Assembly: GCA_016839585.1 (NCBI GenBank)
Contig: JAEOTZ010000053.1
Span: forward strand, 1-36,589
Source: Promethearchaeota archaeon
GTDB lineage: Archaea; Asgardarchaeota; Lokiarchaeia; Sigyniarchaeales; SOKP01
Length of the DNA stretch: 36,589 bases
Direction of reading: 5' to 3'
Shown: piece after piece, positions 1-29,043 of the stretch
How the letters are laid out: the number at the start of each line of letters is the position of its first letter
How positions within the stretch are numbered: position 1 is the stretch's first letter
Notes under the pieces: model-generated
The model's input: the letters and a program-made list of their open reading frames with translations, nothing else
Databases searched by the model: none
Told to the model about the DNA's origin: nothing
Program-made: the position numbers and the translations under genes

Positions 1-98
1 AATTCATAAATATTTATTTCAGGAAAATCAATTTCAGCTGGAATTCCCTCATCATAATGCTTTAACCAAGGTTTTGCGGTATAAGGATTTTCACTCAT
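1..98 (-). CDS. Long-chain fatty-acid--CoA ligase, N-terminal fragment (runs off window start)
   Basis: Manual translation from ATG at 98: MSENPYTAKPWLKHYDEGIPAEIDFPEINIYE. The KPWLKHY..G.P..I..P start is typical of FadD-like acyl-CoA synthetases. Not in the ORF track. Confidence 0.75.
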   Translation of the reverse strand, partial: MSENPYTAKPWLKHYDEGIPAEIDFPEINIYE

Positions 99-180: not shown

Positions 181-1533
181 TTATTCTTCAGTAATATTAT
201 CGAGTGCAGTTATAGCAGATTCGCAAACGTAATCACATTCATCATGAACTAAACCTTCCAAACCAGAAATAACTTCGGGATTATTTAGTTTAATTAAACC
301 TAATGCTTCAGAAGCCCTCCATCTCACATCTGGATTCTTATCATCTAAGGATTTTATTAGTGAGGGAACTGCTGGGACTGAAAAAGAACCTAGTTTACCT
401 AAAGCTAATGCTGCTTCTCTTCGTACGATCGCTTTTGGATCTGTTAAAGATTCTTGTAAAGCATTAACTGCTTCTTCCGAACCTTCCCCTATCTTACCTA
501 ATGCTCTTGCTGCTTCAACTCGAATAAATGTTTTTAAAATGCTTTTTTCAAATTTTAAAATATCACTTAGAGTAGGGATTGCTTCTTTTGCGTCTGTACC
601 TATTCCTCCAAGGGCAGAAATTAAAAGCTTTTTCTTAGATGAATTAGATCTTTGCATTGCTTCAATTATGATAGGAACAGCTTCTCTGCCAATACTTCGA
701 AGTGCATCAACAGCTTTTCCACGTATACTCTCAACCTTATCATCAAGCATAGGGCCTAGATTTTCAATGACTTCGGAATTTCTTATCTCCAGTTCACCTA
801 AAACTTCTATAGCACCTTTTCTAACTATTGGATTTCTGTGATTAAGAATTTCTAAAACGTTAGGAATTACTTCTTCTCCGATTTTCGCAAGCGTATCAAT
901 AACTCGATATCTTACTCGCCAATCTTCATCTTCAAGAGCATTTATTAACGTAGGTATCGCTTTAGTAGATCCCCTTCCAATAAGACTTATTGAATGAGCA
1001 GATGTTGTTCTAACTGCCCAACTTACATCCTTAATACTCTTCATTAAATTTGATATAGCATTATACGCATCTGGACCTAATTGTCCTAAAGCTTTTGCTG
1101 CTTCTGCCCGAACTTCCTCATCTTGATCTTTTAATGTATTTATAAGAGTGGAAATGCATTCATCTGAAGCATAACATATTTTTCCTAAAGATGTTGCAAC
1201 ATCCTTTCGAATTGAAACCTCTTCATCTATTAATAATTTACTTAAAGGGGAAACGGCATTATTAGCTATATTCCCTATTTTTCCTAGAGTTCGTGCAGCC
1301 TCACGGCGTATACTCCAATCAGCATCTTGTAAACATCCAATTAGTTTAGGAATTGCTACTTCAGATTTTTGACCTAATTCTCCTAGTACAAATATAGAAT
1401 TGAATCGAATAGATCGGATATCACTGTCTAAATAATTTATTATATCATTGATTATAGATGGATCTTTTTCAATTCTAGAGAGGACTAAATCGACTCTAGC
1501 ATCCCTTAACAGTTTATCTAATGGAGCTGACAT
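181..1533 (-). CDS. HEAT-repeat (PBS lyase HEAT-like) protein, 450 aa
   Basis: About 13 repeats of D.xxx.VR..AA.ALG.IG (e.g. DADWSIRREAARTLGKIG, DQDEEVRAEAAKALGQLG, DKNPDVRWRASEALGLI). GGTGG RBS 7 nt before the ATG; 12 nt downstream of the livF-like gene. Confidence 0.9.
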   Translation of the reverse strand: MSAPLDKLLRDARVDLVLSRIEKDPSIINDIINYLDSDIRSIRFNSIFVLGELGQKSEVAIPKLIGCLQDADWSIRREAARTLGKIGNIANNAVSPLSKLLIDEEVSIRKDVATSLGKICYASDECISTLINTLKDQDEEVRAEAAKALGQLGPDAYNAISNLMKSIKDVSWAVRTTSAHSISLIGRGSTKAIPTLINALEDEDWRVRYRVIDTLAKIGEEVIPNVLEILNHRNPIVRKGAIEVLGELEIRNSEVIENLGPMLDDKVESIRGKAVDALRSIGREAVPIIIEAMQRSNSSKKKLLISALGGIGTDAKEAIPTLSDILKFEKSILKTFIRVEAARALGKIGEGSEEAVNALQESLTDPKAIVRREAALALGKLGSFSVPAVPSLIKSLDDKNPDVRWRASEALGLIKLNNPEVISGLEGLVHDECDYVCESAITALDNITEE

Positions 1534-1545
1534 TTTGATACCACC

Positions 1546-2250
1546 TTATATACCTAAATATACTTGTTTTATTCGAGGTTCTTTTACTAGTTCTTCTTTA
1601 GTACCTCTCATCTCAATTTTCCCCTCTTCAAGAACGTGAATATAGTCTGCTACATTCAACGCTAATACAGCATCTTGTTCAACCAATAAAGTAGTAGTGC
1701 CTTCATCTCTGATCTTTTTGATTGCCTCAAAAATCTGTGCTTTAACTTTTGGAGCTAGCCCTAAAGAAGGTTCATCTAACAAAAGTAATTTAGGATCAGA
1801 CATAATTGCCCGAGCTAATGCTAGCATTTGTTGTTCACCTCCACTTAATGTTCCTGCTCGTTGTTTTTTTCTTTCTTTAAGACGAGGGAATGTTTCGTAC
1901 ACAAAATCTAATAGTTCTTTAAATTTTTTTTTATCTTTTAACGCAAATGATCCCATCTTAAGATTTTCAAGAACAGATAAATCATAGAATAATTTTCGAC
2001 GTTCTGGACAATGGGCGATTCCCTTTTTTGCAATCTCATGAGGTTCTAATTCATCAATACGTTCTCCTAGGAATATCACTTTTCCTCTATCAGGTTCTTC
2101 TAAACCAGATATAACTCTAAGCAGAGTAGTTTTTCCAGCACCATTTGGTCCAATAACAGCATCTAGAGCTTTTTCATCAACTTGTAGATTAACCTCCTCA
2201 AGCGCTTTTGCGCTACCATAATAATGATATATTTTTCTTATTTCAAGCAA
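1546..2250 (-). CDS. livF: HAAT/LIV-family ABC transporter ATP-binding subunit (LivF-like)
   Basis: Walker A GPNGAGKTT, signature LSGGEQQM, Walker B LLLLDEPSLGLAP, LLVEQ. Start probably TTG at 2250 after GAGGTGA (track uses GTG at 2259). Confidence 0.92.
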   Translation of the reverse strand: MLEIRKIYHYYGSAKALEEVNLQVDEKALDAVIGPNGAGKTTLLRVISGLEEPDRGKVIFLGERIDELEPHEIAKKGIAHCPERRKLFYDLSVLENLKMGSFALKDKKKFKELLDFVYETFPRLKERKKQRAGTLSGGEQQMLALARAIMSDPKLLLLDEPSLGLAPKVKAQIFEAIKKIRDEGTTTLLVEQDAVLALNVADYIHVLEEGKIEMRGTKEELVKEPRIKQVYLGI

Positions 2251-2983
2251 AACCTTCACCTCTTCCTAAATATGCTTCAAGGACAATTTTATGACCTGCT
2301 ACCTCCCTAGGAGGTCCATCAGCAATGAGTTTACCTTGATGCATTGCAAGTACTCTTGGAACTAAGGTCATTAGTTCACGTAAAACATGACCTGTCATAA
2401 ATATTGTTACACCATCATCATGTAATTTATTAATTAAATCAGTAATTCCCAATTGCTCTTCGTGTGATAAACCACTAAATGGCTCATCAAGAAGAAGTAA
2501 TTGTGGATTGGTTCCAACTGCTTTACCAATTTGTAATTTTCTTAAATCTCCATGTGGTAATACTATTGGTGGTATCCTAGCTTTATCTACAAGACCTACA
2601 GCTGTAAGTATTGAGCTAGCGTACTCTTCCGTACCTATATCTTTAGAAACTTTTTTACCTCTTGGGGAAAGACATGAAACTGATACATTATCAAGAATTG
2701 TGAGGAATTTAAAGGACCTTACTAACTGGAACGTTCGAGCAATCCCCAAATTAACAATTTTATAAGGACTCATGCCAGTAATATTGATCCCATCAAATCG
2801 AATACTACCAGCATTAGGTTTTTCAAATCCCGTTAATAAGTTAAATATGGTGGTTTTTCCTGCTCCATTAGGGCCAATCAAGCCAATAAATTCTCCACGT
2901 TCGATTTCAAAACTAAAATCATTAACTGCTGTAAGCCCACCAAACTTTTTTGTTAAATTTTTTACTTCTAGAATGACTCCCAT
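2243..2983 (-). CDS. livG: HAAT/LIV-family ABC transporter ATP-binding subunit (LivG-like)
   Basis: KKFGGLTAV, GLIGPNGAGKTT, GIARTFQ, LLLLDEP, C-terminal VLEAYLG. Confidence 0.92.
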   Translation of the reverse strand: MGVILEVKNLTKKFGGLTAVNDFSFEIERGEFIGLIGPNGAGKTTIFNLLTGFEKPNAGSIRFDGINITGMSPYKIVNLGIARTFQLVRSFKFLTILDNVSVSCLSPRGKKVSKDIGTEEYASSILTAVGLVDKARIPPIVLPHGDLRKLQIGKAVGTNPQLLLLDEPFSGLSHEEQLGITDLINKLHDDGVTIFMTGHVLRELMTLVPRVLAMHQGKLIADGPPREVAGHKIVLEAYLGRGEGFA

Positions 2984-3022
2984 TTTTTAATTCACATACT
3001 TTTGTTAATTTATATTGAAAAT

Positions 3023-4258
3023 TTATCTACCTAATAAAATATCCCATAAATTTTTAAGACGTTCAATAGCAGATTTCAAAACTCCAGCTCCTGCAAATCT
3101 AATTACAAGTATTAAAAGCACAGAAAATATTAATGCATCATCAAGAAAGTCTGCAGCACCTGCTGGGAGCCATTGGAAATCTGCTACACCCCTAAGTATT
3201 TCAATGAGAAATATGAAGAAAAAGGCACCTACTCCTGCTCCTGATATTGTGGCTATTCCCCCTATAGCAACCATCACTAGAGGGTAAAATGAATAAGTGG
3301 TCCCAAAGATTTGAGCACTAACTGCTGTATTGCGCATAGTAAAAAAACCACCGGCTATCCCTGCAAAGAATGCACTTATCACAAATGCTAAAATTTTATA
3401 TCTCGTTGTATGAATCCCTGAAGCTTCTGCACCTGTTTCATCATCTCGGATTGATTTAAAAACTGTACCAAGTTTTGAATTCCCAATCGCTTTCATAATT
3501 GTAAGTGATATAATCACAAAAATAAACACAATATAATATTCAATGATTACATTTTCTGATAAGCGTGGAACACCGAATAACCCAGTTGAACCATAAAGAA
3601 TTGTTGGCATTGCAAATAAAAGATATAAGATACTGGCAAATGATAAAGTTCCTAAAGCAAGGTAAGGTCCTTTTAATCTTAGTGTGGGAATACCAATAAT
3701 TAAACTAATGAGTACTGCGATTAATGCTCCAAAAAATAGAGAGGGTAACCATGGCCAATTTTGAATAAGTATACGATCTGCCGTGACATATCCTGCAAAT
3801 CCGAAAAAGGCAGCTTGACCAAAACTAACTTGACCAGTATATCCTGCCAAAAAATCCCAACTTGCGGCATAAATAGTATATATCATAGCTACAATAAACA
3901 TTGACCCTAAATAATAAGCATTTTGAGTCAATAAAGGGATAATGGCAATTATAAGCATACAGAATAGAGTTAAACCTCCTTTGAAGGTTCCAAGCCAAGC
4001 CATCAGACGTCTTATTGCTGAAGGAATGAGTTTAAAATTACGTTTTATTGCTGCCCACAATATTGTAAAATTAAAAGCCAAGTATAGAAAACCGAAGTAA
4101 AACAAAGTAAAGTAAAGAATAGTTGACAAAATTAAACTAGTATAACCAAAGTAATAAAGTAGAGTAAGTATATAAGTTAGTTCAACCAAGTAAAATACCG
4201 AAACACAGATAACAAAAAGTGAATTTTCTTTTATCCTGTTAAGAAATCTTATTTGCAT
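3023..4258 (-). CDS. livM: HAAT/LIV-family ABC permease (LivM-like) with N-terminal hydrophobic extension
   Basis: GYTGQVSFGQAAFFG, LRLKGPYLALGTL, SIRDDETGAEASGI, KILAFVISAFFAGIAG; AGGAGG RBS. Confidence 0.9.
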   Translation of the reverse strand: MQIRFLNRIKENSLFVICVSVFYLVELTYILTLLYYFGYTSLILSTILYFTLFYFGFLYLAFNFTILWAAIKRNFKLIPSAIRRLMAWLGTFKGGLTLFCMLIIAIIPLLTQNAYYLGSMFIVAMIYTIYAASWDFLAGYTGQVSFGQAAFFGFAGYVTADRILIQNWPWLPSLFFGALIAVLISLIIGIPTLRLKGPYLALGTLSFASILYLLFAMPTILYGSTGLFGVPRLSENVIIEYYIVFIFVIISLTIMKAIGNSKLGTVFKSIRDDETGAEASGIHTTRYKILAFVISAFFAGIAGGFFTMRNTAVSAQIFGTTYSFYPLVMVAIGGIATISGAGVGAFFFIFLIEILRGVADFQWLPAGAADFLDDALIFSVLLILVIRFAGAGVLKSAIERLKNLWDILLGR

Positions 4259-4295
4259 TTTCCTTTTTCCTCCTTAATCTCCTCTTTTCAATAAA

Positions 4296-5183
4296 TTAAT
4301 CAATCTCCTTCTTTCCAAGGATTCCCTGAGGTCTTAACGCAAGCATCACTACAATAACAAACATAGGAACTAAAGTAGAGATAGCTGGATCTATAAAGAC
4401 TCGAGTAAAATGACTAGCATATGATAAAATGAAAGCCCCAAGTACACTGCCGGGAAGACTTCCCATTCCTCCAAGAATCACCACAGCAAACGAATTTGTT
4501 AAGATAACCCATCCCTGCCATGGAGCTATGGGATATGATGGTACATATATAACAGCAGCCACACCAGCAAGAAAGGCAGAAATCATTACGGTAAACATGA
4601 GAACCCTATCAGCATTTATCCCCATAAGCGTTGCTGCCTCTCGGTCTTGAGAAATAGCACGAATTGACGTACCGAGCTTTGATTTACTGATAAATAATGT
4701 TATTAAACTTACAATTAGGAAAGAAATTATCAGAATGAAAACATAGTCATAAGGAATAATGGTTCCGAATAATTCAAAAGAAACAGTTCCTTTAATTTCT
4801 ATTAAGTTAGGTAAGGTAGATTCTTTTTCAAAACCTAGTATAGAACATCCAAGTTTTACAATCTGTTCTATGAAAAAAGCAATGGCAAAAGTTACCATTA
4901 CAACACTTAATTGACTTTTTTTTTCTAACGGTTTAATAAGTGCTAAATATGAAATTCCTCCAATAAGAGTAACAATAATTAATGCTAAAACAACCGATGT
5001 GAATAAACCCAGGGTTCCTAAATACCAATATAACATATATCCAGCAATTAAGTAAAATGCACCATGAGCTAAATTCATAATTCCTCCAGTCCCATATACT
5101 AAAGAATAACCTACTGCTATCAACATATATACTGCTCCTTCTACAGACCCAAGTACTAATACTTGCATAATATCAGTTAGCAT
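4296..5183 (-). CDS. livH: HAAT/LIV-family ABC permease (LivH-like)
   Basis: LIAVGYSLVYG..GIMNLAHG, GTSIRAISQDREAATLMGIN, VVILGGMGSLPG, RPQGILG. Confidence 0.92.
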   Translation of the reverse strand: MLTDIMQVLVLGSVEGAVYMLIAVGYSLVYGTGGIMNLAHGAFYLIAGYMLYWYLGTLGLFTSVVLALIIVTLIGGISYLALIKPLEKKSQLSVVMVTFAIAFFIEQIVKLGCSILGFEKESTLPNLIEIKGTVSFELFGTIIPYDYVFILIISFLIVSLITLFISKSKLGTSIRAISQDREAATLMGINADRVLMFTVMISAFLAGVAAVIYVPSYPIAPWQGWVILTNSFAVVILGGMGSLPGSVLGAFILSYASHFTRVFIDPAISTLVPMFVIVVMLALRPQGILGKKEID

Positions 5184-5433: not shown

Positions 5434-7041
5434 TTAGCGAACTGGCCATGTTATATTTGCTGTTATAACTTGTCCCCATGGCTGATCAGTGTACATTGGA
5501 GGTTCCCAAGATCCTAACCCAAAGTAGGTGCCCAACATGTAGTCGTCACTTATACCAGGTATAGGTCCTAATGGAACACATTCCCATTTACCTAGAGTTG
5601 GATTTGCTGAATCATATACCCATTGGACAAAAACAGCATGCCCTAAGGGTTCTGAACCTTCCACTACATCATGTCTTGTGTGTTGGATACCTGCAGTTGC
5701 GCTATCCACATCTCGATGATAAGTTCCATCAGTCCAAAAACTAATAGTGGCAGTTGGAGAACCCATTCCATATTTTGGCATTCTTGGGATACCAGTTGGG
5801 GTGGTCCAATTGGGGTCTATTCCTTGCCATTCAGATTTCTCCAATTCAGCTAATACATCATCAGTGGCTAATGATTGACCATCAATTATAGAAGTAACTA
5901 CTGCTTGTACAGCATCATACGCACCTGTTGCCGTATAAATAGGAGCCGTGCTAAAATTTCCTACATAATGATCCCAAAATGGGATAGTAAAGGGTGTTTT
6001 AGCATGTCTGATAAAACTCGTCATAGCAATTTCATATTCACAATTTCCTCCTGTTTGTTCCCAGAATATATTTTGTTGTCCCATAACATTTATACCTAGT
6101 GAAAGGGATGGCTGGTTAGTATCACCATATACATCAGAATAATATAATCCGGTTGGTCCTGAGATTATAGGGATAGTAACATCAGCTCCTGAAGCCTTAA
6201 TATCTGCCCAGTATCCATAAAAGTTAACTGGTCCAGCGGTTTGGGGATAAGCGATCTCTTCAACAACTTGTAGCCTATTATCTCCATATATAAAAGCAGA
6301 GAAAAATGGCATAAGACCATTAATAGAACCAGACATTCTAGCTGTCCACGCTAAGTCCTCTCTCATAATTGCGATTTTAGTTATATTTTTGTCATGATTT
6401 TCCTTTTGATCTACTATTGTTGCTGCCAACATTCTAATAACTTCTCCCGCAAGAAATACTTCGTTGAGAGGTTGGATTCTGAATGTATATTTGTATTTAT
6501 TATAGTCATTATAAACATCTTGGCAGAATTTTGCTGTTGCGCTCCCTGTAATGAAAAAGATTTTCTTAGCGTCCATTACGATCTCTCTATACGCTTGCAA
6601 TGCTTCTGTTCTGAACCCACCGAGTATGAATTGAGCCTTTTTATAATATATCATCCTTTCAGCAGCAGCAACTCCCCTAGATAAGTCAAGTGCGGGATTA
6701 GCTTCTTCTGTATCTTCAGTTTCTATTCCAACGTAATAGGTTTCATTGCCAATATTTACGCCTCCCCTCGTATTAATTTCATAAGCTGCCAACCTAGCCC
6801 CATTCTCTGCTCCTTTACCGGTGATATACCCCATATCATCAAGTACTCCAAACTTAATTATCCGATTCTGAGGAACCTCCTCATCTATTCCCGGTACAGT
6901 GTCCATTATATCGTCTGTTGTATTGTCCCATTTATATTCAGCAGCCTCGGAAATTAAAAAGAAATAAGCACCTGCGCCAATACCAACACCAATAACTGCA
7001 ACAAGAACAATCGCTAATATTCTTTGCATTGATTTTTTCAT
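5434..7041 (-). CDS. Membrane-anchored ABC substrate-binding protein, LivJ/K (type I periplasmic binding) family, ~535 aa
   Basis: N-terminal TM anchor (ILAIVLVAVIGVGIGAGAYFFLI), IKFGVL, GARLAAYEINTRGGV, FILGGFRTE, YDAV. Start reassigned to ATG 7041 (MKKSMQR), 7 nt past the end of the duplicated promoter; the track start at 7080 lies inside the repeat. Confidence 0.88.
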   Translation of the reverse strand: MKKSMQRILAIVLVAVIGVGIGAGAYFFLISEAAEYKWDNTTDDIMDTVPGIDEEVPQNRIIKFGVLDDMGYITGKGAENGARLAAYEINTRGGVNIGNETYYVGIETEDTEEANPALDLSRGVAAAERMIYYKKAQFILGGFRTEALQAYREIVMDAKKIFFITGSATAKFCQDVYNDYNKYKYTFRIQPLNEVFLAGEVIRMLAATIVDQKENHDKNITKIAIMREDLAWTARMSGSINGLMPFFSAFIYGDNRLQVVEEIAYPQTAGPVNFYGYWADIKASGADVTIPIISGPTGLYYSDVYGDTNQPSLSLGINVMGQQNIFWEQTGGNCEYEIAMTSFIRHAKTPFTIPFWDHYVGNFSTAPIYTATGAYDAVQAVVTSIIDGQSLATDDVLAELEKSEWQGIDPNWTTPTGIPRMPKYGMGSPTATISFWTDGTYHRDVDSATAGIQHTRHDVVEGSEPLGHAVFVQWVYDSANPTLGKWECVPLGPIPGISDDYMLGTYFGLGSWEPPMYTDQPWGQVITANITWPVR

Positions 7042-7048: not shown

Positions 7049-7128
7049 ATCACTTTTTTATTAGATTTTACATTGATCAATTTACTATTTTATTAAACTA
7101 TTATTTAAACATTTACACTTTTTCAAAA
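7049..7128 (-). repeat. Left arm of perfect 80-bp inverted repeat (promoter/5'UTR of the binding-protein gene)
   Basis: Reverse complement of 7049-7128 is identical base for base to 7697-7776. Confidence 0.97.
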
Positions 7129-7696
7129 ATTAATTACTAAATTTTGTCGTATTTTTTTCTATTTTAAAAAGAAATTGGCATTTAAAACCTGCAAATAATA
7201 ATTTCCAAGTCATAAATCCGATAATATAGATTTAATAGTTGATATAAGCAAGTAAAAAAACTCATTAAAGATATCTTTATTGATGAAACAAACGTAAGGC
7301 TATTTATTTTACTACTGAAATTTTTAATTACTCTCATCTTCCAATATAAAAAATATTTCATACAAAAGAGTTAGATAAAAAATTGCAGAATAAAACAGGT
7401 TTACACTAGATTATCACTAATATTTTTTAAAGTCTATAAGAAAAGGAAAGTACATAAGTTATGCGAGAAAAAAGAAATAAGATTCTAGAATTATCAGTAT
7501 TTCAACAATAAGAAATAACTAAATTAAGATGTAACTATATTTTCTTTATTCCCTTATCTTATATTAAATTACATTTTCGCCAATTCCCATTTGAGAAATT
7601 TTAAATGAGAAAATTGTCAATTCGAGCTAAGTCAGAAAAATTATGGAGCTTTAATCTTAATTGTTGAATTTATTTGATGAGATTTTGAAAATTTAA

Positions 7697-7776
7697 TTTT
7701 GAAAAAGTGTAAATGTTTAAATAATAGTTTAATAAAATAGTAAATTGATCAATGTAAAATCTAATAAAAAAGTGAT
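7697..7776 (+). repeat. Right arm of perfect 80-bp inverted repeat (promoter/5'UTR of the 531-aa gene)
   Basis: TTTTGAAAAAGTGTAAATGTTTAAATAATAG...TAAATTGATCAATGTA...AAAAGTGAT. Contains TATA-like TTTAAATA (7716-7723), near-palindrome TAAATTGATCAATGTA (7741-7756) and RBS-like AGTGA; the arm ends 8 nt before ATG 7785. Confidence 0.97.
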
Positions 7777-7784: not shown

Positions 7785-9380
7785 ATGTCAAAGAAAACTA
7801 CTATAATTGGGATTGTAGTTCTAGTTCTTGGCGCAATAGCGATACCAAGTGGAATATTCGCAAGTGATTATATTCGAACCCTAGTCCACGATGGAGTTTG
7901 TGAGGGTTTATTAGATATTCAAGATGGTGTTATTGAAGATGGTGAAGACACAGTAGCAACTTTAGCGATCCCTGAAGTTCTTCTTGGAGTTAAAGCAGAA
8001 GCAGATGCTGCATTACCCGATATTGTTTTGGGAGGAACCACTGCGTATACACTAAATGAAACTATAAGCGGTATTGCTGATATATTAGGTATGACCACTA
8101 CATTGGAATTGTTCTTTAATAATGAAAGTTTCTCATTGATAACCCCATCTCCATATGAAGGTGTAACAGAATATGTTACAGGGCTGCCATATACATTAAA
8201 TTTCACAGCTGGTGCTCAAAATGCCTTAATGAACACTGGTATTACTATAACTACGGATTTATATAACAGAACTATTCCAGGTATTATAGAAGATACTACC
8301 TTCGGATTTGGAGTTTTATATTTTCTTGAAGCGTATCAAGCTGCGGCTACTTCAGTTCCAGGAGTAAATGCTTCCATGCAAGCTGGTTATGGTGCTGCCT
8401 GGGGACAACTTTCTGCAATGGCATTATATCTAACCGATTATTGGTTTCCAAATGTAGTTCTCTACTACATGGGTCTAGGTACTTCTGTAGCAGAAGTTGC
8501 TGAAAATATGTTATATGAACAATGGGCAAATGGTACTTATGCACCTACTGGCCTTGACCTTAGTCTTTTAAGTGATTTAATAACAGAACCACTTACAGGT
8601 TTAGAAGCAGGGGTTCCCACTCCAACAGGTATAACGTTAGGTACAGCTAAGGATCTGTTTAATGATACTCTTCCTTTAGCATTTACAAACGAGGATGGAA
8701 TTTGGGTATGGGCATGGGCTGCTGGAGCAGCACCTCCACCATATGATGCTCTTAATGCTACTTTATTAGTAAGTACTTTTGGTCTTCACCCAGTTACTCA
8801 GTTACCATTAGTACTTAACTGGTTATTTAACGTTTTCAAGCCAGATGTTGTTCCACCTCTGATCTTAGCATCTGAAGGATTAACAATGTGGGAGTTAACT
8901 AATGAAAGGTTATTCTTACCTCAATGGGCTAATGGAACTTATTTCCCAACTGGTCTTGATCTTACCGGTGTACCTAATAAGGGTAAAGGTTGGGAGATAG
9001 GAGTAACAAACGATTTACCGACACCTACAGGTATAACAGTTGATTCAGCAGTACTTCTTTTTACTGAAACTAATGCATTAGCTCTAGTTAATGACGATGG
9101 TCTTGATAGATGGTATAAGGCAAAAGTTAATGATTCCAACTATGTTGCTTTAAAAGCAGGTAATTTATTAACAGATGCACAAATGTTATTGCTTATGGAC
9201 TATATACCTAGATTCAGAGATGATGTTGTACCATACCTAGCGGAATATAAATACGATTTGCCAACTGATGCCTATACATTAGCAGATGGACTATTATATG
9301 GATTAATGATCCCTGGAATTGCTCTTCTTGCTCTTGGTGGAGTAGCATTAGTTGTATCCATAATTAAAAGGAAATCGTAA
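7785..9380 (+). CDS. Cell-surface protein with N- and C-terminal TM helices and ~134-aa internal repeats (CD36/LIMP-2-like hairpin topology)
   Basis: TM at both ends. Repeats QWANGTY.PTGLDL...G.E.GV..PTPTGIT...A..LF.....LA..N.DG...W at 8520 and 8922 (period 402 nt). About 10 N-x-S/T sequons. Confidence 0.85.
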   Translation: MSKKTTIIGIVVLVLGAIAIPSGIFASDYIRTLVHDGVCEGLLDIQDGVIEDGEDTVATLAIPEVLLGVKAEADAALPDIVLGGTTAYTLNETISGIADILGMTTTLELFFNNESFSLITPSPYEGVTEYVTGLPYTLNFTAGAQNALMNTGITITTDLYNRTIPGIIEDTTFGFGVLYFLEAYQAAATSVPGVNASMQAGYGAAWGQLSAMALYLTDYWFPNVVLYYMGLGTSVAEVAENMLYEQWANGTYAPTGLDLSLLSDLITEPLTGLEAGVPTPTGITLGTAKDLFNDTLPLAFTNEDGIWVWAWAAGAAPPPYDALNATLLVSTFGLHPVTQLPLVLNWLFNVFKPDVVPPLILASEGLTMWELTNERLFLPQWANGTYFPTGLDLTGVPNKGKGWEIGVTNDLPTPTGITVDSAVLLFTETNALALVNDDGLDRWYKAKVNDSNYVALKAGNLLTDAQMLLLMDYIPRFRDDVVPYLAEYKYDLPTDAYTLADGLLYGLMIPGIALLALGGVALVVSIIKRKS

Positions 9381-9445: not shown

Positions 9446-12400
9446 TCAAATCACATTAAATTCTATTAAAATGCTAAATATCGCAGGTATTCCCACGAGA
9501 AAAATAGCTGTTAGAATTATAATAAGGGTATAAAATCTCCATTTGACTGATATATTGTCTTTTCTTTCTTTATAAATAACATAAGGCAATAAAATTGCTC
9601 CCATAATCCAAATGGATATCCATAAAGTAAAAATATACCAATTAGGAGTAATGAACAGAAATAATATTGCGATAACTGTTATCCAAGAGGTAATTAGTTT
9701 TCTCATTCTATGTTTGAAAATCAAATCAACATCTTCTGTTTTTTTAGATGGTAAAAATAAAGAAAGTAGACCAAAAAGTCCAAGTATAACAAAAACAGAA
9801 TGATACCAATTTAAATAATTAAGTTGCAATGGAGATAAAAGAATACCACTTGAAACTGCAAGAAATAAACTAAATGAGACCCAGATGATTTTGTAATGTA
9901 ATTTTAAAAAATTGAAAATCTTGATTCCAATATCTTTGATAAATTTTTTTAATCGACTAAAAAAATGTATTAAAAGGTCTAAAAGTTTATTAAAAAAGGC
10001 CTTTAAGACTTCAAGCATAAAGATAAAGAGATAAACGGTAAGCATAATAGGTAAAAGAACAATACTTGATAATGTTTGAGAGGTCGCAAAATAAATTATC
10101 AAACTTATTAATAAAGAGATAAGACCTCCATAAGCAAAGGAAAAGTTATGAGATCTCTTATGAGGTTTAATTAATCCAATATTAAATATTGAAAAAGTTA
10201 AAAGGGAAATAGAGATATTTAGTGGGAGAGAAAGATTAAAGGAGAGATGTAACCAACTAAAAATATCAATAATTAGTATTATTAGAATTATGAAGGAAGT
10301 AGCAAATCTAAGTTTTTTTAAGAATTTCTCTTTAAAAATGTGAGATATTTTTTCGTCAATATAAGAAATTATTACTAAAACATAAAAGGAAATTAGGAAT
10401 AGAGTAATATTAAGAATTACATTGAATCCTAAGAAAAATAAAGGCCAAATTATAAAATCAAAATACAATACAGTAAGCAATCTTTTTCTAATTTTATCTT
10501 TTTTTGAGCTCAGTTTCGGCAAAAATTCAAACAATTTAATTAAATAGATAAGTTCTATGATAATTAGTAAAATTAAAGGTGGAATAGAAGAAATCAAAAT
10601 ATCAGATAAATAGGAAACATAGATCCATATTAAATAGAAATTTGAAAAGAATATAAATAAAAGCCAAGAAACTGCTTTAAGATATATTGAAAGTTTTCCT
10701 AAAAGCTTTAATTGATAAGCATCAAGAATCATTAATCCGTGGAGAAAAAGACTTGTTATAAGAATAAGTAAAGAAATTTCAACTCCGATTATAAGAAGAG
10801 ATTGAATTAGAATTGATAGGACAGAAACGTATAATAATATCCCTAAAGAATGAAGTGTTTTAAGTTTATGGCGTTTAAAGGTTTCTGCTTTATTAGGATA
10901 AAAGTGGGATAAAGAAAGAAAAAGTGAATGATTTGTATAAAATTGCATAATTAAAAAGATTAAGATTTCTATACTAATTAGAAGGGGATTAAATTTTACA
11001 TACTGGTTTAAGATTAGAAGAGTTGTTAAGGAGAGTATAAAATAACTAATCGTATGAACTAGTCTTCCATAACTTTCTCTTATTTTTTTTAGAAAATAGA
11101 TATCAAATGAAGTTAAAATAAATAAAGTTAATTGAGACATAAAAAGACTTTCAAAAAATCCTAAAAATTCAATTGCAAGTCCATAGACCATTAAACTTGT
11201 TTCAAGATATAGTAAAAAGATAATTAAAGAATTAGATTTCGTTAGAAAGTTAGGAAAATTTTCTTTTTTAACTAAACCATCAATTAACTTGACTGTAATA
11301 AATGATAAGCAGGTTTCAATTAGAATGATAGAATAAACCGTGAAAAGATTTAAAATATTGAATACTAAAAACAGAACAACCCAATTTGCGGCAAAAATTA
11401 TTTGAAAAAGAGTTATTAATAGAAGTTTTATACTGATTTTTATCTTTTCTTTAGCTTTTCTAATGAAATAACTAAAAATAAATAGAAATAATATTGAATT
11501 TTGAATGAATAATAGAAGAGAGGGTATTCCACGCACTTCTTCAAGAATTAATACTATTCCGTTAGATATTAGAGAAGAAATGTAAAATGAAACCCATATA
11601 AATGAATTATAGATTAGTATTAAGTGTATTATTGAAACTAAATTTTCGTTTTTAATATTAAAATATGAAATGAAGTAAGAATCAATTAAATTTACCAGAG
11701 AGAATGATAATATTAAAATAAATTCATCTAAATGGAAGAAATAAAGGAAAATGCAAGAGAAATTACCGAATATCACCCATGACCAAAACATTAACTTATT
11801 CCGAGTAGCAACGAATAAGTAATAAAAATATCGATTATCAAAAATAAATAATTCAGTAAATAAAACTCCACTTAAGATTATTAAGAATAAATAAATAGAA
11901 TTTGTTAAAGTAACATCTAATTTAAGCAATAATAACAAAAGATTAAAAGCTGTTGCCAATGGGACAATTAAATATATGATATAACTTATTTTATGAATAT
12001 AAATTAATAGATTTTTAACTTTTAATTCAAGTTCTGATTTTATAATATATTTTATACTAAATAATAGAAGAAAGGGTAGAATGATTAGAATATTAAGAAT
12101 CTGATAAATTAATAGTAAATCTCTGAATAATACTTTTTTATATATATTTACACTAATAACTGATATGAGTATTGAAAAATAAAGTGAATTTATTATAAAG
12201 CAGATTAGGTTTTGTAATTTAATTTGATTCTTATCTTTGAAAAAATACGATAAAGTATTCTCTCCTTTTATTTTAGCTTCTTCATAGTGAGAATTTGAAA
12301 TATTCATTACTAGTTGGTATATTATTAAATAATCAATCAAAAATATTAAAATTGCTAAAAAGAGGGAAGATTGAATAAAATCAATTATTAAGAATAATTC

Positions 12401-15400
12401 CTGAAAGAGAAATGTCAACGGTAAGGGAAACAAATACCATATATATAATCTATAATTGCCTAATGGATAGTAAACAAATAACAGAGAAATCATTACAAAA
12501 ATAGCAGCTATAAAAAATGGATTTTCTGGCAGAAATATGGCCAGAAAGGAAGAAACAGCGGAGGAAATACCAAATGATACCGCTGAAAAGGGAATTATTT
12601 TATGGATATGTATTTTCATTTTATAGTAATTAAAAACATAAAAAGAACCACCCCATACAGCAATTGCTAGAAATATAGCAAAAAATAATAGATTAGGGAA
12701 CAAATTAAATGAATTAAAAGTTAACCATGAAATACCAAATATTAGAATCCAAGAAGATATTATGTCTGTTAATCGTTTAATTGGTTTAATATATTTAGAA
12801 GAAAATAGACTAAATCCAACAAATATAAAAGTTATATTTAAAGCAAAAATTGGATCTAAGATTATATGATACAATATAAAATAAATTGTTAGAAAAACCC
12901 CAATTATCGCTGTTATGTAAGAACCAATGATAATGAGATTTTTTATTGATTTAAAAGCAGGAAAAAATGATAAAATTAAAACCAACATGGCAATGGCGAA
13001 AATATCAATTGAAATCACAATGTCTAAAGGGATTTCTAATGATAATAGAAAGAAAATTAAAAAATTTGCATTAATTGCTATAAGGATTAGCCATACGAAC
13101 GAGATTGTTTTCCAAAATTTCAATTTATAGAACAGGGGCGCTAATAAAACGGCTGCAAAAAGTGCAAATACCAAATATCTTAACAAGAAATTAGTCAGAA
13201 ATAGATTTTGACTAATCCAAAAAAGTAAAGCTAGGTTTATGCCCCAAATAATGAGTAAAATTTGATAGAAATATACCTTAATTTTAGTATATGCAATAGG
13301 TAAGAAAAATAGAAAAAATATCACAGTAGTGAGAAGAAATGATCCATTTATTTCATATCCAAAAAAATCTATTGCACTTGTAGCTATATCGACACCTTTA
13401 AGACTTCTATATAATAGATAAAAATTAGCAAAAGGTACAATAAACCAAGCATACCAACCTGTCCTCCAAATTGCCCAAGAAATTTTCCACTGATATAATC
13501 CAATAGATAAATAGAAAAGAAAAATTCCAACATCAATAGCTATAATTAATGGAAATGGATCTCCAAATGGTATGGAAAGAGACACACTAATAAAGAAATA
13601 TAAGAAAATAGGAAAGCTGATAACAATACATGGTAAAACTATAAAGAAAGAAATTCTTCTTAATGGTAATCGTGATTTATAAAATAATAAAACATAAGCT
13701 AATCCAGTAAGACTTAATGTTAATGTCGTTGTAAGAACGAAATTAACTTCTCCATGAATAGGATTATTAAAAAGCCATGAATACGATATAAAACTTAAAA
13801 TGTCAGTAATAAATAGAATTACAGTGAATCTTTTGATAAAGAATCGATATTCTTCAGAAACTAACTCAAATTTCTCGAAATAGGAAAAAGTAATAGGGGA
13901 TAATAGTGAAACAATTAGAATGAAAGTAATTATTAGATTAAAAACTGAAAACTGAACTAATGATAAAAAGTAGGTAAGAATAAAGGATATAAAAAAGCAG
14001 ATAGTAACTTTAGCAATTAGCCACGATACAAATTCAATATTCCTCTGTACGTTAGGAAATTCGAGTTTTATTAAAGCATTGCTAAACTTAAATGATATAA
14101 ATGCTATCAGGAAAAAGAAACCAAGATACCAAAACACATTAAAAAGATGCATTTCTGTTGGTAAATATTTTAAAACTTCGCTAAATTGAATTAAAGAAAA
14201 AATCACTAATGATGGAGAAAAAATTAGACCATAATATAAAATATCTTTTAGATATCTTAGAAAAGTTAATTCCTTTGAATAAAGTTGAAGTAATTTTAAA
14301 GTATAAATATTTATAATAAAGAAAGTTAAAATAGCACAATTTATTATTAAAAGCCTTATTGTAAGAAGAGATTGTGTTAAACCTAATAGTATAATCTCAA
14401 ATGATATAAAAAAGGAGAAGATTAACCAAACGAAGATCTGAAGAAATCTTAAAGTTTTAATGTAGGGTTCTTTTATTTTAAAATTTTCAGCTATTGATTC
14501 AAAGATCTTTAAAATGATAAATAAAATAAAGATGGTAATAATTAAGATTAGAATATAATCAACACTTAAACCCATTTGTTCTATTTGTAAACCCATTAGA
14601 GTTGGAACGCATAATATTATTCCGGATAATATTATACTGTTATAAATTAAGCTTTTTTTCCCTATAGATTCTGTTAGAACTCCTTTTCTATACGCATAAA
14701 TACTAGGTATGAAGAAGTATATGGATGCTAGCATTAATGGTAATAAAAATCTAAATAGTGTTTCATAGAAAATTATAAAGAAGTAAAAGAATACTGTTGT
14801 TCCAGTTAAAAGAAAAGCTATTAAAACTGCTAATATTGAAACAATTCTCCTAAGATTTCCTCTTATTTTGACGTTTATAATGATTAAAATTCCAAAGAGA
14901 GTATAAAGAGTAAAATTAATATCAGTAATAACTGTGATAGTATCGACAGTTAGTCCTAAACTGATTAATTCTAAATAAATGAATGTTGGAATACATAATA
15001 TCAATCCAGATAATAAGAAAGTGTTATAGGTTAAGATTTTCTTCCCAATAGACTCTTTCAAAATTCTTTTTCTATAAGAGTAAGTAGTAGGGATGAAGAA
15101 GTAAGAGGATGCTATTATTAAAGGGAATAAAAATCTAAATAGAGTCTCATAGAAAATTATAAAGAAGTAAAAAAATACTGTTGTTCCAGTTAAAAGAAAA
15201 GCAATTAAAACTGCAAGTATTGAAAGAATTCTTTTAAGATTTTCTCTTATTTTAATCCTGTAAATAAGAAGAATTCCAAATAGAATATAAAGAGTGAAAT
15301 TGATAACATTAAATACTGTGATAATATTAACTCGATATTCTAGATTAATTAATTCTAAATAAATGAATGTTGGAATGAGAGTTAGAAATACAGATAAAAT

Positions 15401-17683
15401 TATACCATTATATACTAATGCTGTTCTTGTTAATTTTGGCGCCTTATCTTTCTTCAATGAATACATTATTGGTAGATATAAATATGAGCACGTAATTATT
15501 ACGGGAAATGTAAATAGATAAAAGGTTCCTAAATTCAAAGATAGCAAACATAAATAGTAAAATAAATAAATTGAGCTGAGAAACAGGGTTATTATATTAA
15601 CATTAATAGATGTAGCTTTTGTAAATAGGATTTCAAATGCAGAAATGCCATTTATTAGAACACATGTAATAATTAAGGTAAGAAATGACGAAAGAATTAT
15701 ATTGTCGATTAAAAGTAGAAATTGAAAGGAAGCATAAAATATAGAGAAAATTAAAGCCAAAAGTAACAAAAATATTGGATAAGATAAAACACTCATAGCC
15801 TTTTTATAGGTTTCTTCTTTTACTTTTGCTATTTTTACCCCAAATTTCAAATTGAAATTAATAAGAATTAATAAAAGTAGGAAATTGAAAATCATCATAA
15901 TATAGTCTGGGAAGAATGTAATGAGTATAGATAGAAAAATAATTACTATTAATGACCAAAAAGAATAATAAATTGATGCTAAAAGCGTCTTTAAGTTAAT
16001 CATGCCAATTAAATAATTCAATGATACGAAAAGCATGAATATTAACGGAAATAAGATAGTAGAAATGGTTAAAAGCTTAATGAAAAGGTTAAAACTCACT
16101 GTGAAGTAGGTATTCAAATTGATGAGAATAAAGATAATTAATTCTATCAGAAATAAATTCATTAGTACGCATATTTTGAATGTATTTGAGTATTTTTCTT
16201 TGAAGAAAATTGCATATAATCTGTAAAATGAAAGTAATAAAACAACAAAGAAAACAATTAGAATTATAAAAATGTTAGAAACAAATGTTAGATAAGGATC
16301 TGTAGTAATATAAACATAGTTAAGAATGATCAAGAAAAAAGCAATTATTGCAAGAATATTTTGAGTTATTAGGATATTTCCTTTTTTAAAATAATCAACC
16401 CTTCTAAATAATTCTAACATGAAATAAAAGGAAATGGAAAAAACAATCAATTGAATATTGAAATTAATAAGATCTGAAATAGAAGGTAAGATTCCAAAAG
16501 AGATAGAAGCTAAACACGCAAGAGAATATAATAAAATAATAAAATTATTGTATTTTTTAAAGGAGTAATTTGATTTATGCTCATAATGAGTAAAAATAAA
16601 AAAAAATGGAAGAATAATTAGTGTAATGTAAGGTAACTCTATAAGAAAAGTGTATAATGTTATTAATAAGATTAAAATTCCTGTTAATATCGAACTTAAT
16701 TTTTGATATTTGACTTTTGTATCTTTATTTTCTTCTTTAGGATTTTTTGATGTTTCGGGGTTCGTGTATAACTCAAATAAAAATTCATAGTATAAGTAGA
16801 TATAAAGTACAGTTTTAAGAAAGAGTAAGACGAATAAAAAACTTAGAAACGCATCATCTATAAGAATACTAATTGAAAATTGACCTCTCTGAATAAAAAA
16901 TACCAATGATATGAAAGGCATTTGAATCAAAAGAACAAACATAAAGCTAGCTATAGATATAACAAATTTACGCTTAAATTTTGTTAGATTTTTTAAGAAT
17001 GGCTTGTTTTCGGCTATATTTTTTTTGATTTCATTCTGTTGATTACTTACAGACGCTAAAGTAATCAAATAAAAAATTACATTATTGATAAGCCCAAAAA
17101 GCCATGCAAAATCAGTTGAAGTTATAAAAGATAGATATAAAATTTGAATAAAGTAATTAATGACAATAACAATATTATAGGGTTGTTTTAACATCAATTT
17201 TAAACTAATAGCATGCTTAAACTCTCCTTCTCCTATATTGAAAAAATCGATAGGTTGAAAGTAGTAGTAATAATACACAATATTATATAAAAGAGAAAAA
17301 GAAATCAACGGAAGATAAATAAACGACCAATTTTCGGGCGTAATAAGAACGAAAATTGGGGTTACAACATAAGATAATATAGATATTAGATAAATGACGT
17401 GTACTCTGGCAATTGGGTTATTGGATTTATTATAAAAGAAAGGGTTATTTCGATATTTGTCAAAACTTTTATAAAAGAAGAGGAAAGCAAATGTAAAAAT
17501 TATGACAGAAATAGTAAACGCGATATATGAAGCCCAAGGAAACTGTACCAAGATCCAGAATCCAGCTAAAGAAATAGCGAAGGGGGCAATTATTAGGAAA
17601 AAGCAAAATCTAAATAATTTTGTAAGGAATTCAGTTACTTTCTTAATTTTTTCTTCAGAGTTGTTAGATTCTTTAGATTTCAT
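9446..17683 (-). CDS. Giant polytopic membrane protein, 2745 aa, unknown function
   Basis: Uninterrupted 8.2-kb ORF in AT-rich DNA. About 85 hydrophobic segments counted by eye, separated by alternately short and Lys/Arg-rich loops; no recognisable soluble domain. Confidence 0.9.
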   Translation of the reverse strand: MKSKESNNSEEKIKKVTEFLTKLFRFCFFLIIAPFAISLAGFWILVQFPWASYIAFTISVIIFTFAFLFFYKSFDKYRNNPFFYNKSNNPIARVHVIYLISILSYVVTPIFVLITPENWSFIYLPLISFSLLYNIVYYYYYFQPIDFFNIGEGEFKHAISLKLMLKQPYNIVIVINYFIQILYLSFITSTDFAWLFGLINNVIFYLITLASVSNQQNEIKKNIAENKPFLKNLTKFKRKFVISIASFMFVLLIQMPFISLVFFIQRGQFSISILIDDAFLSFLFVLLFLKTVLYIYLYYEFLFELYTNPETSKNPKEENKDTKVKYQKLSSILTGILILLITLYTFLIELPYITLIILPFFFIFTHYEHKSNYSFKKYNNFIILLYSLACLASISFGILPSISDLINFNIQLIVFSISFYFMLELFRRVDYFKKGNILITQNILAIIAFFLIILNYVYITTDPYLTFVSNIFIILIVFFVVLLLSFYRLYAIFFKEKYSNTFKICVLMNLFLIELIIFILINLNTYFTVSFNLFIKLLTISTILFPLIFMLFVSLNYLIGMINLKTLLASIYYSFWSLIVIIFLSILITFFPDYIMMIFNFLLLLILINFNLKFGVKIAKVKEETYKKAMSVLSYPIFLLLLALIFSIFYASFQFLLLIDNIILSSFLTLIITCVLINGISAFEILFTKATSINVNIITLFLSSIYLFYYLCLLSLNLGTFYLFTFPVIITCSYLYLPIMYSLKKDKAPKLTRTALVYNGIILSVFLTLIPTFIYLELINLEYRVNIITVFNVINFTLYILFGILLIYRIKIRENLKRILSILAVLIAFLLTGTTVFFYFFIIFYETLFRFLFPLIIASSYFFIPTTYSYRKRILKESIGKKILTYNTFLLSGLILCIPTFIYLELISLGLTVDTITVITDINFTLYTLFGILIIINVKIRGNLRRIVSILAVLIAFLLTGTTVFFYFFIIFYETLFRFLLPLMLASIYFFIPSIYAYRKGVLTESIGKKSLIYNSIILSGIILCVPTLMGLQIEQMGLSVDYILILIITIFILFIILKIFESIAENFKIKEPYIKTLRFLQIFVWLIFSFFISFEIILLGLTQSLLTIRLLIINCAILTFFIINIYTLKLLQLYSKELTFLRYLKDILYYGLIFSPSLVIFSLIQFSEVLKYLPTEMHLFNVFWYLGFFFLIAFISFKFSNALIKLEFPNVQRNIEFVSWLIAKVTICFFISFILTYFLSLVQFSVFNLIITFILIVSLLSPITFSYFEKFELVSEEYRFFIKRFTVILFITDILSFISYSWLFNNPIHGEVNFVLTTTLTLSLTGLAYVLLFYKSRLPLRRISFFIVLPCIVISFPIFLYFFISVSLSIPFGDPFPLIIAIDVGIFLFYLSIGLYQWKISWAIWRTGWYAWFIVPFANFYLLYRSLKGVDIATSAIDFFGYEINGSFLLTTVIFFLFFLPIAYTKIKVYFYQILLIIWGINLALLFWISQNLFLTNFLLRYLVFALFAAVLLAPLFYKLKFWKTISFVWLILIAINANFLIFFLLSLEIPLDIVISIDIFAIAMLVLILSFFPAFKSIKNLIIIGSYITAIIGVFLTIYFILYHIILDPIFALNITFIFVGFSLFSSKYIKPIKRLTDIISSWILIFGISWLTFNSFNLFPNLLFFAIFLAIAVWGGSFYVFNYYKMKIHIHKIIPFSAVSFGISSAVSSFLAIFLPENPFFIAAIFVMISLLFVYYPLGNYRLYIWYLFPLPLTFLFQELFLIIDFIQSSLFLAILIFLIDYLIIYQLVMNISNSHYEEAKIKGENTLSYFFKDKNQIKLQNLICFIINSLYFSILISVISVNIYKKVLFRDLLLIYQILNILIILPFLLLFSIKYIIKSELELKVKNLLIYIHKISYIIYLIVPLATAFNLLLLLLKLDVTLTNSIYLFLIILSGVLFTELFIFDNRYFYYLFVATRNKLMFWSWVIFGNFSCIFLYFFHLDEFILILSFSLVNLIDSYFISYFNIKNENLVSIIHLILIYNSFIWVSFYISSLISNGIVLILEEVRGIPSLLLFIQNSILFLFIFSYFIRKAKEKIKISIKLLLITLFQIIFAANWVVLFLVFNILNLFTVYSIILIETCLSFITVKLIDGLVKKENFPNFLTKSNSLIIFLLYLETSLMVYGLAIEFLGFFESLFMSQLTLFILTSFDIYFLKKIRESYGRLVHTISYFILSLTTLLILNQYVKFNPLLISIEILIFLIMQFYTNHSLFLSLSHFYPNKAETFKRHKLKTLHSLGILLYVSVLSILIQSLLIIGVEISLLILITSLFLHGLMILDAYQLKLLGKLSIYLKAVSWLLFIFFSNFYLIWIYVSYLSDILISSIPPLILLIIIELIYLIKLFEFLPKLSSKKDKIRKRLLTVLYFDFIIWPLFFLGFNVILNITLFLISFYVLVIISYIDEKISHIFKEKFLKKLRFATSFIILIILIIDIFSWLHLSFNLSLPLNISISLLTFSIFNIGLIKPHKRSHNFSFAYGGLISLLISLIIYFATSQTLSSIVLLPIMLTVYLFIFMLEVLKAFFNKLLDLLIHFFSRLKKFIKDIGIKIFNFLKLHYKIIWVSFSLFLAVSSGILLSPLQLNYLNWYHSVFVILGLFGLLSLFLPSKKTEDVDLIFKHRMRKLITSWITVIAILFLFITPNWYIFTLWISIWIMGAILLPYVIYKERKDNISVKWRFYTLIIILTAIFLVGIPAIFSILIEFNVI
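14600..15490 (-). repeat. Intragenic tandem repeat, period 384 bp (128 aa), ~2.3 copies
   Basis: TCCAGTTAAAAGAAAAGC at 14801 and 15185; GTTGGAA at 14601/14985/15369. The peptide SILAVLIAFLLTGTTVFFYFFIIFYETLFRFL occurs twice identically. Boundaries approximate. Confidence 0.9.
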
Positions 17684-27773: not shown

Positions 27774-28008
27774 TTTTAATCCTCAGTTTTATATAATTAT
27801 TTAAGAAGAATAACATGATAATTTATTAAAATTTAATTGGATTAAAATAAAAGGTTGCTATTTTTTATACTATTTAGTAAAGAGGTCAGCTAATCAAGGT
27901 ATTAAGCCACTTTTATAATTAATTTTCTATTAAAATTGGAAAAGAAATAATTTTTTTATTATAATAAAATTATAATACTCAAAAATTAAATATAATTAAT
28001 GAGGAAAA

Positions 28009-28833
28009 ATGAGTGAAAACATAATATTAATAGAGGAAAACGAAGATAAAACCATTACCACAATAAAAATGAATCGTCTTGATAAAAAAAATGCGATGAA
28101 TTATAATTTAATGGCGGGGCTTCTAAAAGCTATAGATAAAGTTGAACGTACTAATACAAGAGTTGTTATTATTACCGGAGGAGACGAATTCTTTAGTTCA
28201 GGAATAGATTTAAACTTTCTTACTGGTCAAGAGAAAGACCCTGAAGGTGTTATTCCTGATTTACGAATTCCGCGGAATTTCAGATATTTCGCAAATACTT
28301 GGATCCATCCAATCTTCACGAAAATTGAAAAGATGGAGAAGCCAGTAATAGCTAAAATAAATGGATATTGTTTTGGAATGGCTTTTGAACTCGCTTTAGC
28401 ATGCGACTTTCGATTCTGTACAGAATCAGCTGAGTTCCACATGCTGGAGAGCAAGATAGGACTTTCACCAGATGTGGGCGGTACTATTAGACTAACAAGG
28501 CTTGTGGGCATCCAAAATACCAAAGATATCATTTTAACTGGACGTAAATTTGATGGAAATGAGGCTTATAGATTGGGAGTGGTAAATCGTGTTGTTAAAA
28601 CTCATAAAGAATTAGATTCAATAATTAAAATGTATACTGACGAACTTATGACGAGTGGTCCTTTAGCTGTTGGACTTGCTAAAAAACTGATTGATGATTG
28701 TTATGGTAAGGACACCGCTTTTGGGTTGGAATTAGAAACACTTGTAAGCTCTCAATTACTACAAACAAAAGATGCTATGTCAGGTGCATTAGCTCGTCTT
28801 CAAAAAACAAATCCTAAATGGCGATGGAAATAA
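28009..28833 (+). CDS. Enoyl-CoA hydratase/isomerase (crotonase) family protein
   Basis: NRLDKKNAM, FSSGIDL, KPVIAKINGYCFGMAFELALACDFR, ESKIGLSPDVGG. Confidence 0.92.
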   Translation: MSENIILIEENEDKTITTIKMNRLDKKNAMNYNLMAGLLKAIDKVERTNTRVVIITGGDEFFSSGIDLNFLTGQEKDPEGVIPDLRIPRNFRYFANTWIHPIFTKIEKMEKPVIAKINGYCFGMAFELALACDFRFCTESAEFHMLESKIGLSPDVGGTIRLTRLVGIQNTKDIILTGRKFDGNEAYRLGVVNRVVKTHKELDSIIKMYTDELMTSGPLAVGLAKKLIDDCYGKDTAFGLELETLVSSQLLQTKDAMSGALARLQKTNPKWRWK

Positions 28834-29020: not shown

Positions 29021-29043
29021 ATAAATCCAATTATAATTAAAAT

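Follow-up and report, generated by a model that had tools for sequence, protein, structure and literature searches.

A two-helix surface protein with a repeat-built head

The window analyzed here, 36,589 nt in length, is a complete contig (G000:C40) from a 3.45-Mb, 99%-complete genome of a Promethearchaeota archaeon, and the gene of interest lies at 7785..9380 on its plus strand. The open reading frame (ORF) is uninterrupted and encodes a protein of 531 residues (P0001, hereafter the target), a putative hairpin-anchored surface glycoprotein that is very probably a relative of the CD36/scavenger-receptor-B (SR-B) family devoid of that family's β-barrel. Its closest protein relatives carry the label Promethearchaeota, i.e., Loki-type Asgard archaea.

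Hydropathy analysis reveals exactly two hydrophobic segments, at residues about 6-27 and 505-527. The first transmembrane helix (TM1) and its juxtamembrane motif LG..L.P.G...N.YI...V..GV span residues 2-41 (7788..7907) and are homologous to TM1 of Asgard CD36 proteins, whereas the second (TM2; 9297..9365) is followed by the basic tail KRKS. With termini MSKKT... and ...KRKS, the tails measure only 5 and 4 residues, and application of the positive-inside rule to them places the 480 residues between the helices outside the cell, in the topology typical of CD36: an ectodomain held between two transmembrane helices with short cytoplasmic tails. Sequons (N-x-S/T) are enriched in this ectodomain, with 10 observed versus 3.3 ± 1.6 expected (5000 shuffles, P = 0.0006). 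Both the terminal helices with very short tails and the abundance of sequons had been proposed in an earlier, sequence-only reading of the locus and are borne out here.

The extracellular head can be divided into three parts. Residues 30-231 (7872..8477) form, in the structure model described below, a long helix and, after it, a helical subdomain, which together we refer to as unit 1. Next come repeat unit A (residues 232-367; 8478..8885), carrying the motifs QWANGT ... L.WL..F..VVP, and repeat unit B (residues 368-495; 8886..9269). The two repeats align over residues 246-359 and 380-490 with 39% identity (E 2e-19) at an offset of 134 residues, in agreement with the two 134-residue copies noted in the sequence-only reading. 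Its degenerate third copy is weakly supported (BLAST E 0.003; unit 1 versus repeat profile comparison, probability 25%, E 7.5e-4): the 52 matching columns correspond to the common tail that it had named, and in the target's relatives the putative third copy behaves as the separate unit 1. Across the family P21 never varies and G23 hardly does, and there are invariant tryptophan, glutamate and glycine positions as well.

A confident helical model without a CD36 domain or a solved counterpart

The target is not a CD36-domain protein. Searches against Pfam, with PF01130 the check suggested in the sequence-only reading, returned no family at E ≤ 0.01, PF01130 included; NCBIfam gave no match at E ≤ 1, and the target-family profile retrieved only noise (E about 2) from PDB sequences. 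Hidden Markov models (HMMs) that we built for both barrel halves, unit 1 and the repeat detected barrel halves in 10 relatives and none in the target or 141 other module-only relatives. The protein thus has no PF01130-detectable β-barrel ectodomain, and it contains a single cysteine in its entire length, so that the conserved ectodomain disulfides of class B CD36 proteins cannot form. In the CD36 family the β-barrel holds a lipid tunnel; with neither the domain nor the barrel, the target lacks the tunnel through which CD36 proteins move lipids.

AlphaFold2 models computed with 24 and 43 relatives reached pLDDT values of 88.9 (full length) and 91.4 (residues 101-496), and are all-α apart from two tiny hairpins. 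Foldseek comparison of the full model with PDB and BFVD yielded nothing at E ≤ 0.001, and a wide VIA-align search matched it only to long helical hairpins (Z ≤ 9.9 across about 70 residues). For the head alone no comparable solved fold was found either, with a best Z of 4.0 among 48,161 chains and a best Foldseek E of 2.2; the ESM Atlas gave no usable match, and CD36 and LIMP-2 were absent from every fold-search list. Structure prediction and fold search, also suggested in the sequence-only reading, have therefore delivered a confident helical model and no solved-fold match.

Sorting of the C-terminal 'IPG' helix by an archaeosortase was considered and rejected, as PF09721 is absent from the 99%-complete genome and was detected in a control genome; nor did NCBIfam, at E ≤ 1, report a PGF-CTERM signal in the target. 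At least 37 ORFs of 250 or more residues in this genome combine an N-terminal hydrophobic segment with a C-terminal transmembrane helix and basic tail (e.g., G000 C63:38952, C59:20683, C27:34652 and C37:94918), and about a dozen of them feature a PGF-CTERM-like [IV]PGY/F just ahead of the C-terminal helix.

A CD36 homologue in the same genome shares TM1 and one head unit

A true CD36/LIMP-2 homologue of 775 residues is encoded elsewhere in the same genome (G000:C5:30700-33027; L068:211-2538, plus strand), with E-values of 1e-64 to PF01130, 5.5e-43 to LIMP-2 and 1e-39 to CD36. It carries an insert of about 296 residues at the point where the apex helices of LIMP-2 start, and its 49 relatives, all with PF01130, come from Asgard-labeled metagenome-assembled genomes (MAGs) or from metagenomes. 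Three of them (P0156, P0157 and P0159), 81-92% identical to the C5 protein, are labeled Promethearchaeota, Hodarchaeota and Hermodarchaeota, respectively; three phylum names on such similar proteins indicate that the labels of that MAG series are unreliable.

Two segments link this Loki-type CD36 family to the target family. The target-family profile matches one repeat unit within the CD36 insert (probability 98.8%, E 5.4e-17), and the match stops where the alignment to LIMP-2 resumes. Furthermore, the first 40 residues of the two families align with an hhalign probability of 98.1% (E 1.1e-13, 40 columns), against 3-4% for cross-controls of N- versus C-terminal segments, and the TM1 regions of the target and the C5 protein are 34% identical pairwise. 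The C-terminal segments give a weak profile match (probability 65%, E 6e-5). TM1, the head unit and the pre-TM2/TM2 segment are hence collinear between the target and Loki-type CD36 proteins, leaving the barrel halves alone as the missing parts. It is important to note that the TM1 match was measured against the Loki-type CD36 family rather than the long-form Asgard and protist proteins discussed below. The resemblance to the CD36 TM1 noted in the sequence-only reading holds for Asgard CD36, while human CD36 was not among the PDB sequences retrieved by the TM1-region profile.

The head module occupies the apex of long-form CD36 proteins

An exhaustive search for relatives of the target yielded 128 cluster representatives. 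Among those scanned, five show PF01130 split in two: P0080 (Hodarchaeales), P0095 (Kariarchaeaceae), P0146 (a metagenome), P0153 (the ciliate Muranothrix gubernata) and P0155 (the amoebozoan Cavostelium apophysatum). In all five the target-like part separates the two portions of the CD36 domain. The alignment of P0080 covers target residues 25-361 (34% identity, BLAST E 2e-41), and the target-family profile matches ciliate P0153 (hhalign probability 99.6%, E 1.3e-24, 308 columns) as well as isoform P0211 of the amoebozoan (99.4%, E 1.7e-21, 317 columns), the QWANGT and L.WL motifs falling within both matches. Our own HMMs concur: the head module lies between the barrel halves in 10 of 10 barrel-containing relatives, and the order N-barrel, unit 1, repeat, C-barrel is complete in 8 of them, whereas the 142 module-only relatives contain from 0 to 6 repeat units each. 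Together, these comparisons indicate homology between the target's head and the insert found at the apex of long-form CD36 proteins in Asgard archaea and two protists. The sequence-only reading had entertained a kinship with a eukaryotic receptor family; it survives in TM1 and the head and fails for the CD36 domain and barrel.

The ciliate and amoebozoan proteins are 25-30% identical to the Asgard forms compared, in barrel and head alike, which makes them distant homologues of common architecture and unlikely contaminants from the compared Asgard lineages. A word-indexed search with the ciliate module returned the query alone, and therefore says nothing on how widely the module is spread in eukaryotes.

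In a sample of 201 genomes of the phylum, the target family is present in 28 and PF01130 in 12, where it is split in every case; in three genomes from other taxonomic families of the phylum (G015, G111 and G181) a target-like match lies between both CD36 halves. Among these genomes, barrel-less forms were seen only in the window's own order, where they occur in 24 of 43; the present genome has three family members, and tandem copies are found in others. Restriction of the barrel-less form to one order, combined with the architecture of the eukaryotic proteins, favors a full-head CD36 protein as the older state, from which the barrel would have been lost within this order. Metagenome scans with the target protein, and with the core of the upstream element described next, gave no match.

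Gene neighborhood and paired upstream arms

Divergent from the target, on the minus strand, lies an operon that begins with an N-terminally anchored substrate-binding protein (SBP; Peripla_BP_6; 5434..7041) and continues with a HAAT-type ATP-binding cassette (ABC) importer of two BPD_transp_2 permeases and two ABC_tran ATPases (1546..5183) and a 450-residue HEAT-repeat protein (181..1533), all assigned by Pfam. At its far end, cut by the contig boundary, are the first 32 codons of an AMP-binding gene of acyl-CoA ligase type (3..98), which match the N-terminus of a 561-residue AMP-binding enzyme in the same position in congener G245 (E 1.6e-97). The operon is thus composed as the sequence-only reading had it. 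For the SBP no relative was found among PDB sequences and no informative match in NCBIfam. On the other side, convergent with the target, stands a gene for a 2745-residue, almost wholly hydrophobic membrane protein (9446..17683, minus strand), which adjoins a target-family gene in G168, G245 and G227 as well; the giant ORF has a GC content of 24% and no Pfam match, is convergent to the target-family gene in all three congeners, and part of its 3' end is duplicated in G227, where the extra fragment is also found upstream of the promoter core.

The order giant membrane protein, target, promoter pair and SBP/ABC/HEAT(/ligase) operon is repeated in congeners G168 and G245, and in G227 a 680-residue paralogue, 38% identical, stands behind one promoter-core copy, with the giant gene's orthologue and a divergently oriented ABC cluster as its neighbors. 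Beyond these, a further 27 family loci, spread over this genome and 20 others, show no HAAT SBP or permease, acyl-CoA ligase, CD36 or giant gene within the available flanks of 1-10 kb. The synteny that the sequence-only reading had called for across Asgard genomes was not seen at these loci, and linkage to the ABC operon is limited to three to four species of one genus. Even there the G245 orthologue is broken into a 333-residue ORF and a C-terminal part in another frame, and lacks about 100 residues (L066:5714-6998, G245:C35), next to an intact operon and giant gene; this copy is either a pseudogene or an error of MAG assembly. Among congeners, target orthologues are 68-80% identical, the five ABC permease, ATPase and HEAT genes 80-94%, the SBP 72% and the giant neighbor 82-91%.

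The intergenic region is framed by two inverted-repeat arms of 87 nt. One (7690..7776, plus strand), the presumed promoter and 5' leader of the target, ends 9 nt before its ATG, and the other (7049..7135, minus strand), 98% identical, stands at equal distance upstream of the SBP gene. The claim that the two genes have identical promoters is hence upheld as sequence identity, while a promoter role is presumed. The arms are 98% complementary, with no chance match in shuffles, and are the only strong copies in the 3.45-Mb genome; a weak third match (C26:20214-20269, 77%) was set aside, as it lies upstream of an unrelated 256-residue membrane protein. Four of 54 genomes of the genus carry the element. 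The arm pair is also present in G168 and G245, with arm lengths of 87-93 nt, and the four arms of G000 and G168 are almost without variation over a core of about 75 nt. Within each species the two arms have one substitution in common, suggestive of exchange between them.

Between them lies an AT-rich spacer of 554 nt (7136..7689) without an Rfam match, whose ends are conserved and whose middle is not. It has the same orientation in G245 (L066:7007-7516), and in G168 it is reversed in its entirety (L040:11810-12355), so that inverted repeats enclose a segment found in both orientations, as in an inverton, in a comparison made between species only. Such a reversal could reflect an invertible element or plain recombination between the arms. 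Together, the conserved order and the paired arms lend good support to co-regulation of the target with the ABC operon in this small clade.

Discussion

In light of these results, we propose that the target would be an N-glycosylated surface protein, its glycosylation predicted from the sequons, with one membrane helix at each end, and that it would represent an offshoot of CD36/SR-B proteins in which TM1 and probably TM2 are retained, as is the helical tip module of the long forms in the guise of one unit 1 and two 134-residue repeats, while both halves of the lipid-tunnel β-barrel are missing. Derivation from CD36 and absence of the barrel form the firmest part of this proposal, and we hold them to be highly probable. 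The absence of a barrel rules out passage of lipids by the CD36 mechanism. In characterized CD36 proteins the apex is the site of ligand recognition (PMC10715195), and by that analogy the target would present its head at the surface for recognition or binding, serving as a receptor or adhesin and not for the passage of lipids, a role that we regard as somewhat more probable than not. It may further bind or concentrate the importer's substrate, or a carrier of that substrate, near the membrane; that it is a dedicated helper of the ABC importer seems doubtful to us. Taken as a whole, a barrel-less CD36 offshoot displaying a recognition head is the explanation we favor, with reasonable though not strong confidence.

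Several considerations weigh against it. The function of the head is deduced from homology, and loss of the barrel, as opposed to capture of the module by a CD36 protein, from distribution and collinearity. Similarity of transmembrane segments may be inflated by composition, though the cross-controls are low. The eukaryotic evidence consists of two transcriptome-derived proteins, for which the level of identity argues against contamination and could still be reconciled with it. None of the 27 further family loci shows the ABC linkage, and in G245 an intact operon stands next to a disrupted copy. Finally, a locus this variable, with its distant paralogue in G227, faster evolution and a spacer inverted in G168, fits a generic variable surface antigen equally well.

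This last point leads to the alternative that fares best among those considered, namely that the target is a general glycocalyx coat protein of an Asgard cell without an S-layer, diversifying under pressure from viruses or partner organisms, and that it shares its promoter with the SBP gene merely because both surface proteins are abundantly made. The family is indeed expanded and modular (three copies here, tandem copies elsewhere, 0 to 6 repeat units) and the target rich in sequons; its orthologues diverge more (68-80%) than the five permease, ATPase and HEAT genes (80-94%) or the giant neighbor (82-87%), in the range of the surface-exposed SBP (72%); a paralogue takes the gene's place in G227, and the G245 copy is disrupted; and proteomic analysis found a cultured Lokiarchaeon to yield no S-layer proteins, its main glycoprotein being a membrane-anchored SBP (PMC11284389). 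Against a mere coat or spacer stand the head module, which is recognizable in CD36 proteins of a ciliate and an amoebozoan, and the invariant tryptophan, glutamate and glycine positions, which point to a specific fold and function. We consider both the coat role and its account of the shared promoter unlikely, yet serious.

A second alternative concerns the intergenic region rather than the protein: the arms and spacer could constitute an invertible switch that turns expression from the surface-protein gene to the ABC operon and back, so that the two form a phase-variable pair. Reversal of the full spacer in G168, the sign of arm-to-arm exchange within each species and the conservation of the spacer ends but not of its middle speak for such a device. 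However, arms that end 9 nt before the ATG could each hold a promoter and leader, in which case inversion swaps only the sequence upstream of them; no recombinase domain was seen among the ORFs of the window; and with the arm pair confined to three genomes a single evolutionary inversion suffices. An active promoter switch at 7049-7776 is therefore possible, and we judge it improbable.

The reading originally put forward for this locus, a CD36-like fatty-acid or lipid translocase feeding the ABC importer and acyl-CoA ligase, draws on homology to parts of CD36-family proteins, on a promoter shared with an operon that ends in an AMP-binding enzyme and on enoyl-CoA hydratase, thiolase-like, SDR and dienoyl-CoA-reductase-like genes 16-27 kb away on the contig, but appears very improbable for a protein with no tunnel-forming barrel, a single cysteine that precludes the family disulfides, no family-wide linkage to ABC or ligase genes and a partner SBP whose searches yield no informative relative as to substrate. 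Of the broader lipid-capture system envisaged with it, the hairpin topology, the upstream sequence shared with the ABC/ligase operon and the tie to CD36 stand, whereas the barrel and a conserved linkage do not; a role of the target in lipid capture is possible.

Returning to the favored view of the target as a barrel-less CD36 offshoot, comparison with known proteins shows both what it has kept and what it has given up. Like the long-form CD36/SR-B proteins P0080 (Hodarchaeales), P0095 (Kariarchaeaceae), P0111 (Heimdall-labeled), P0153 (M. gubernata) and P0155/P0211 (C. apophysatum), it has two terminal transmembrane helices and a head in which unit 1 precedes QWANGT repeat units; the long forms carry that head between their barrel halves, whereas in the target it joins TM1 and TM2 directly. 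With the C5 CD36 homologue and its Loki-type relatives (P0156-P0202) it has in common a homologous TM1 motif (..L.PTG..LND.I) and one homologous repeat unit; unlike the target, the C5 protein features a full PF01130 and a head reduced to one recognizable unit, and is encoded on a separate contig. Vertebrate LIMP-2/SCARB2, CD36 and SR-BI (PDB 4F7B, 4Q4B and 5LGD) resemble the target in hairpin topology and in their heavy N-glycosylation, mirrored by its sequon-rich ectodomain, and in the alignment the final helix of the repeat unit falls at the start of the LIMP-2 apex helices; in contrast to them, the target has no barrel, tunnel or disulfides and no direct sequence or fold match. Beyond the family, the SBP DSAG12_03090 of Promethearchaeum syntrophicum is likewise an extracellular glycoprotein with its N- and C-terminal helices as membrane anchor (PMC11284389), but is a solute-binding protein of known fold, whereas the target's head matches no solved fold.

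In the literature that we searched, CD36/SR-B is treated as eukaryote-only and no paper connects CD36 with Asgard archaea; a stand-alone barrel-less family and its link to Asgard CD36 genes are new here. The enlarged CD36 tip emerges as a discrete and conserved domain that matches no solved fold, common to Asgard archaea and at least two eukaryotic supergroups, and able to stand alone on the family's membrane anchors, as it does in at least 142 sequence clusters. This offers, in the target, a small construct with a confident structure prediction to probe what is recognized by the CD36 tip in archaeal relatives of eukaryotes, and, in the tip domain itself, a marker for tracing the CD36 family over the archaeon-to-eukaryote transition. 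More speculatively, and with low expectation that all its parts will hold, the QWANGT module might be an ancestral, pre-eukaryotic ligand-sensing apex of CD36 that was freed from the barrel in one Asgard order to become a membrane receptor by itself and, in this genus, wired via a duplicated, recombining promoter to an ABC importer and acyl-CoA ligase for hydrophobic carboxylates. A survey of SR-B proteins across Eukarya, in which prokaryotes are not mentioned, describes the apex expansions of protists as lineage-specific and independent (PMC10715195), and an ancestral apex, if true, contradicts that published origin.

The distal part of the window (25758-36589) holds a cluster of acyl-CoA metabolism genes, comprising an Oxidored_FMN and Pyr_redox_2 protein that resembles 2,4-dienoyl-CoA reductase, two enoyl-CoA hydratases, an SDR and a thiolase-like protein, together with FAD/NAD/2Fe-2S and amine-oxidase-like oxidoreductases.

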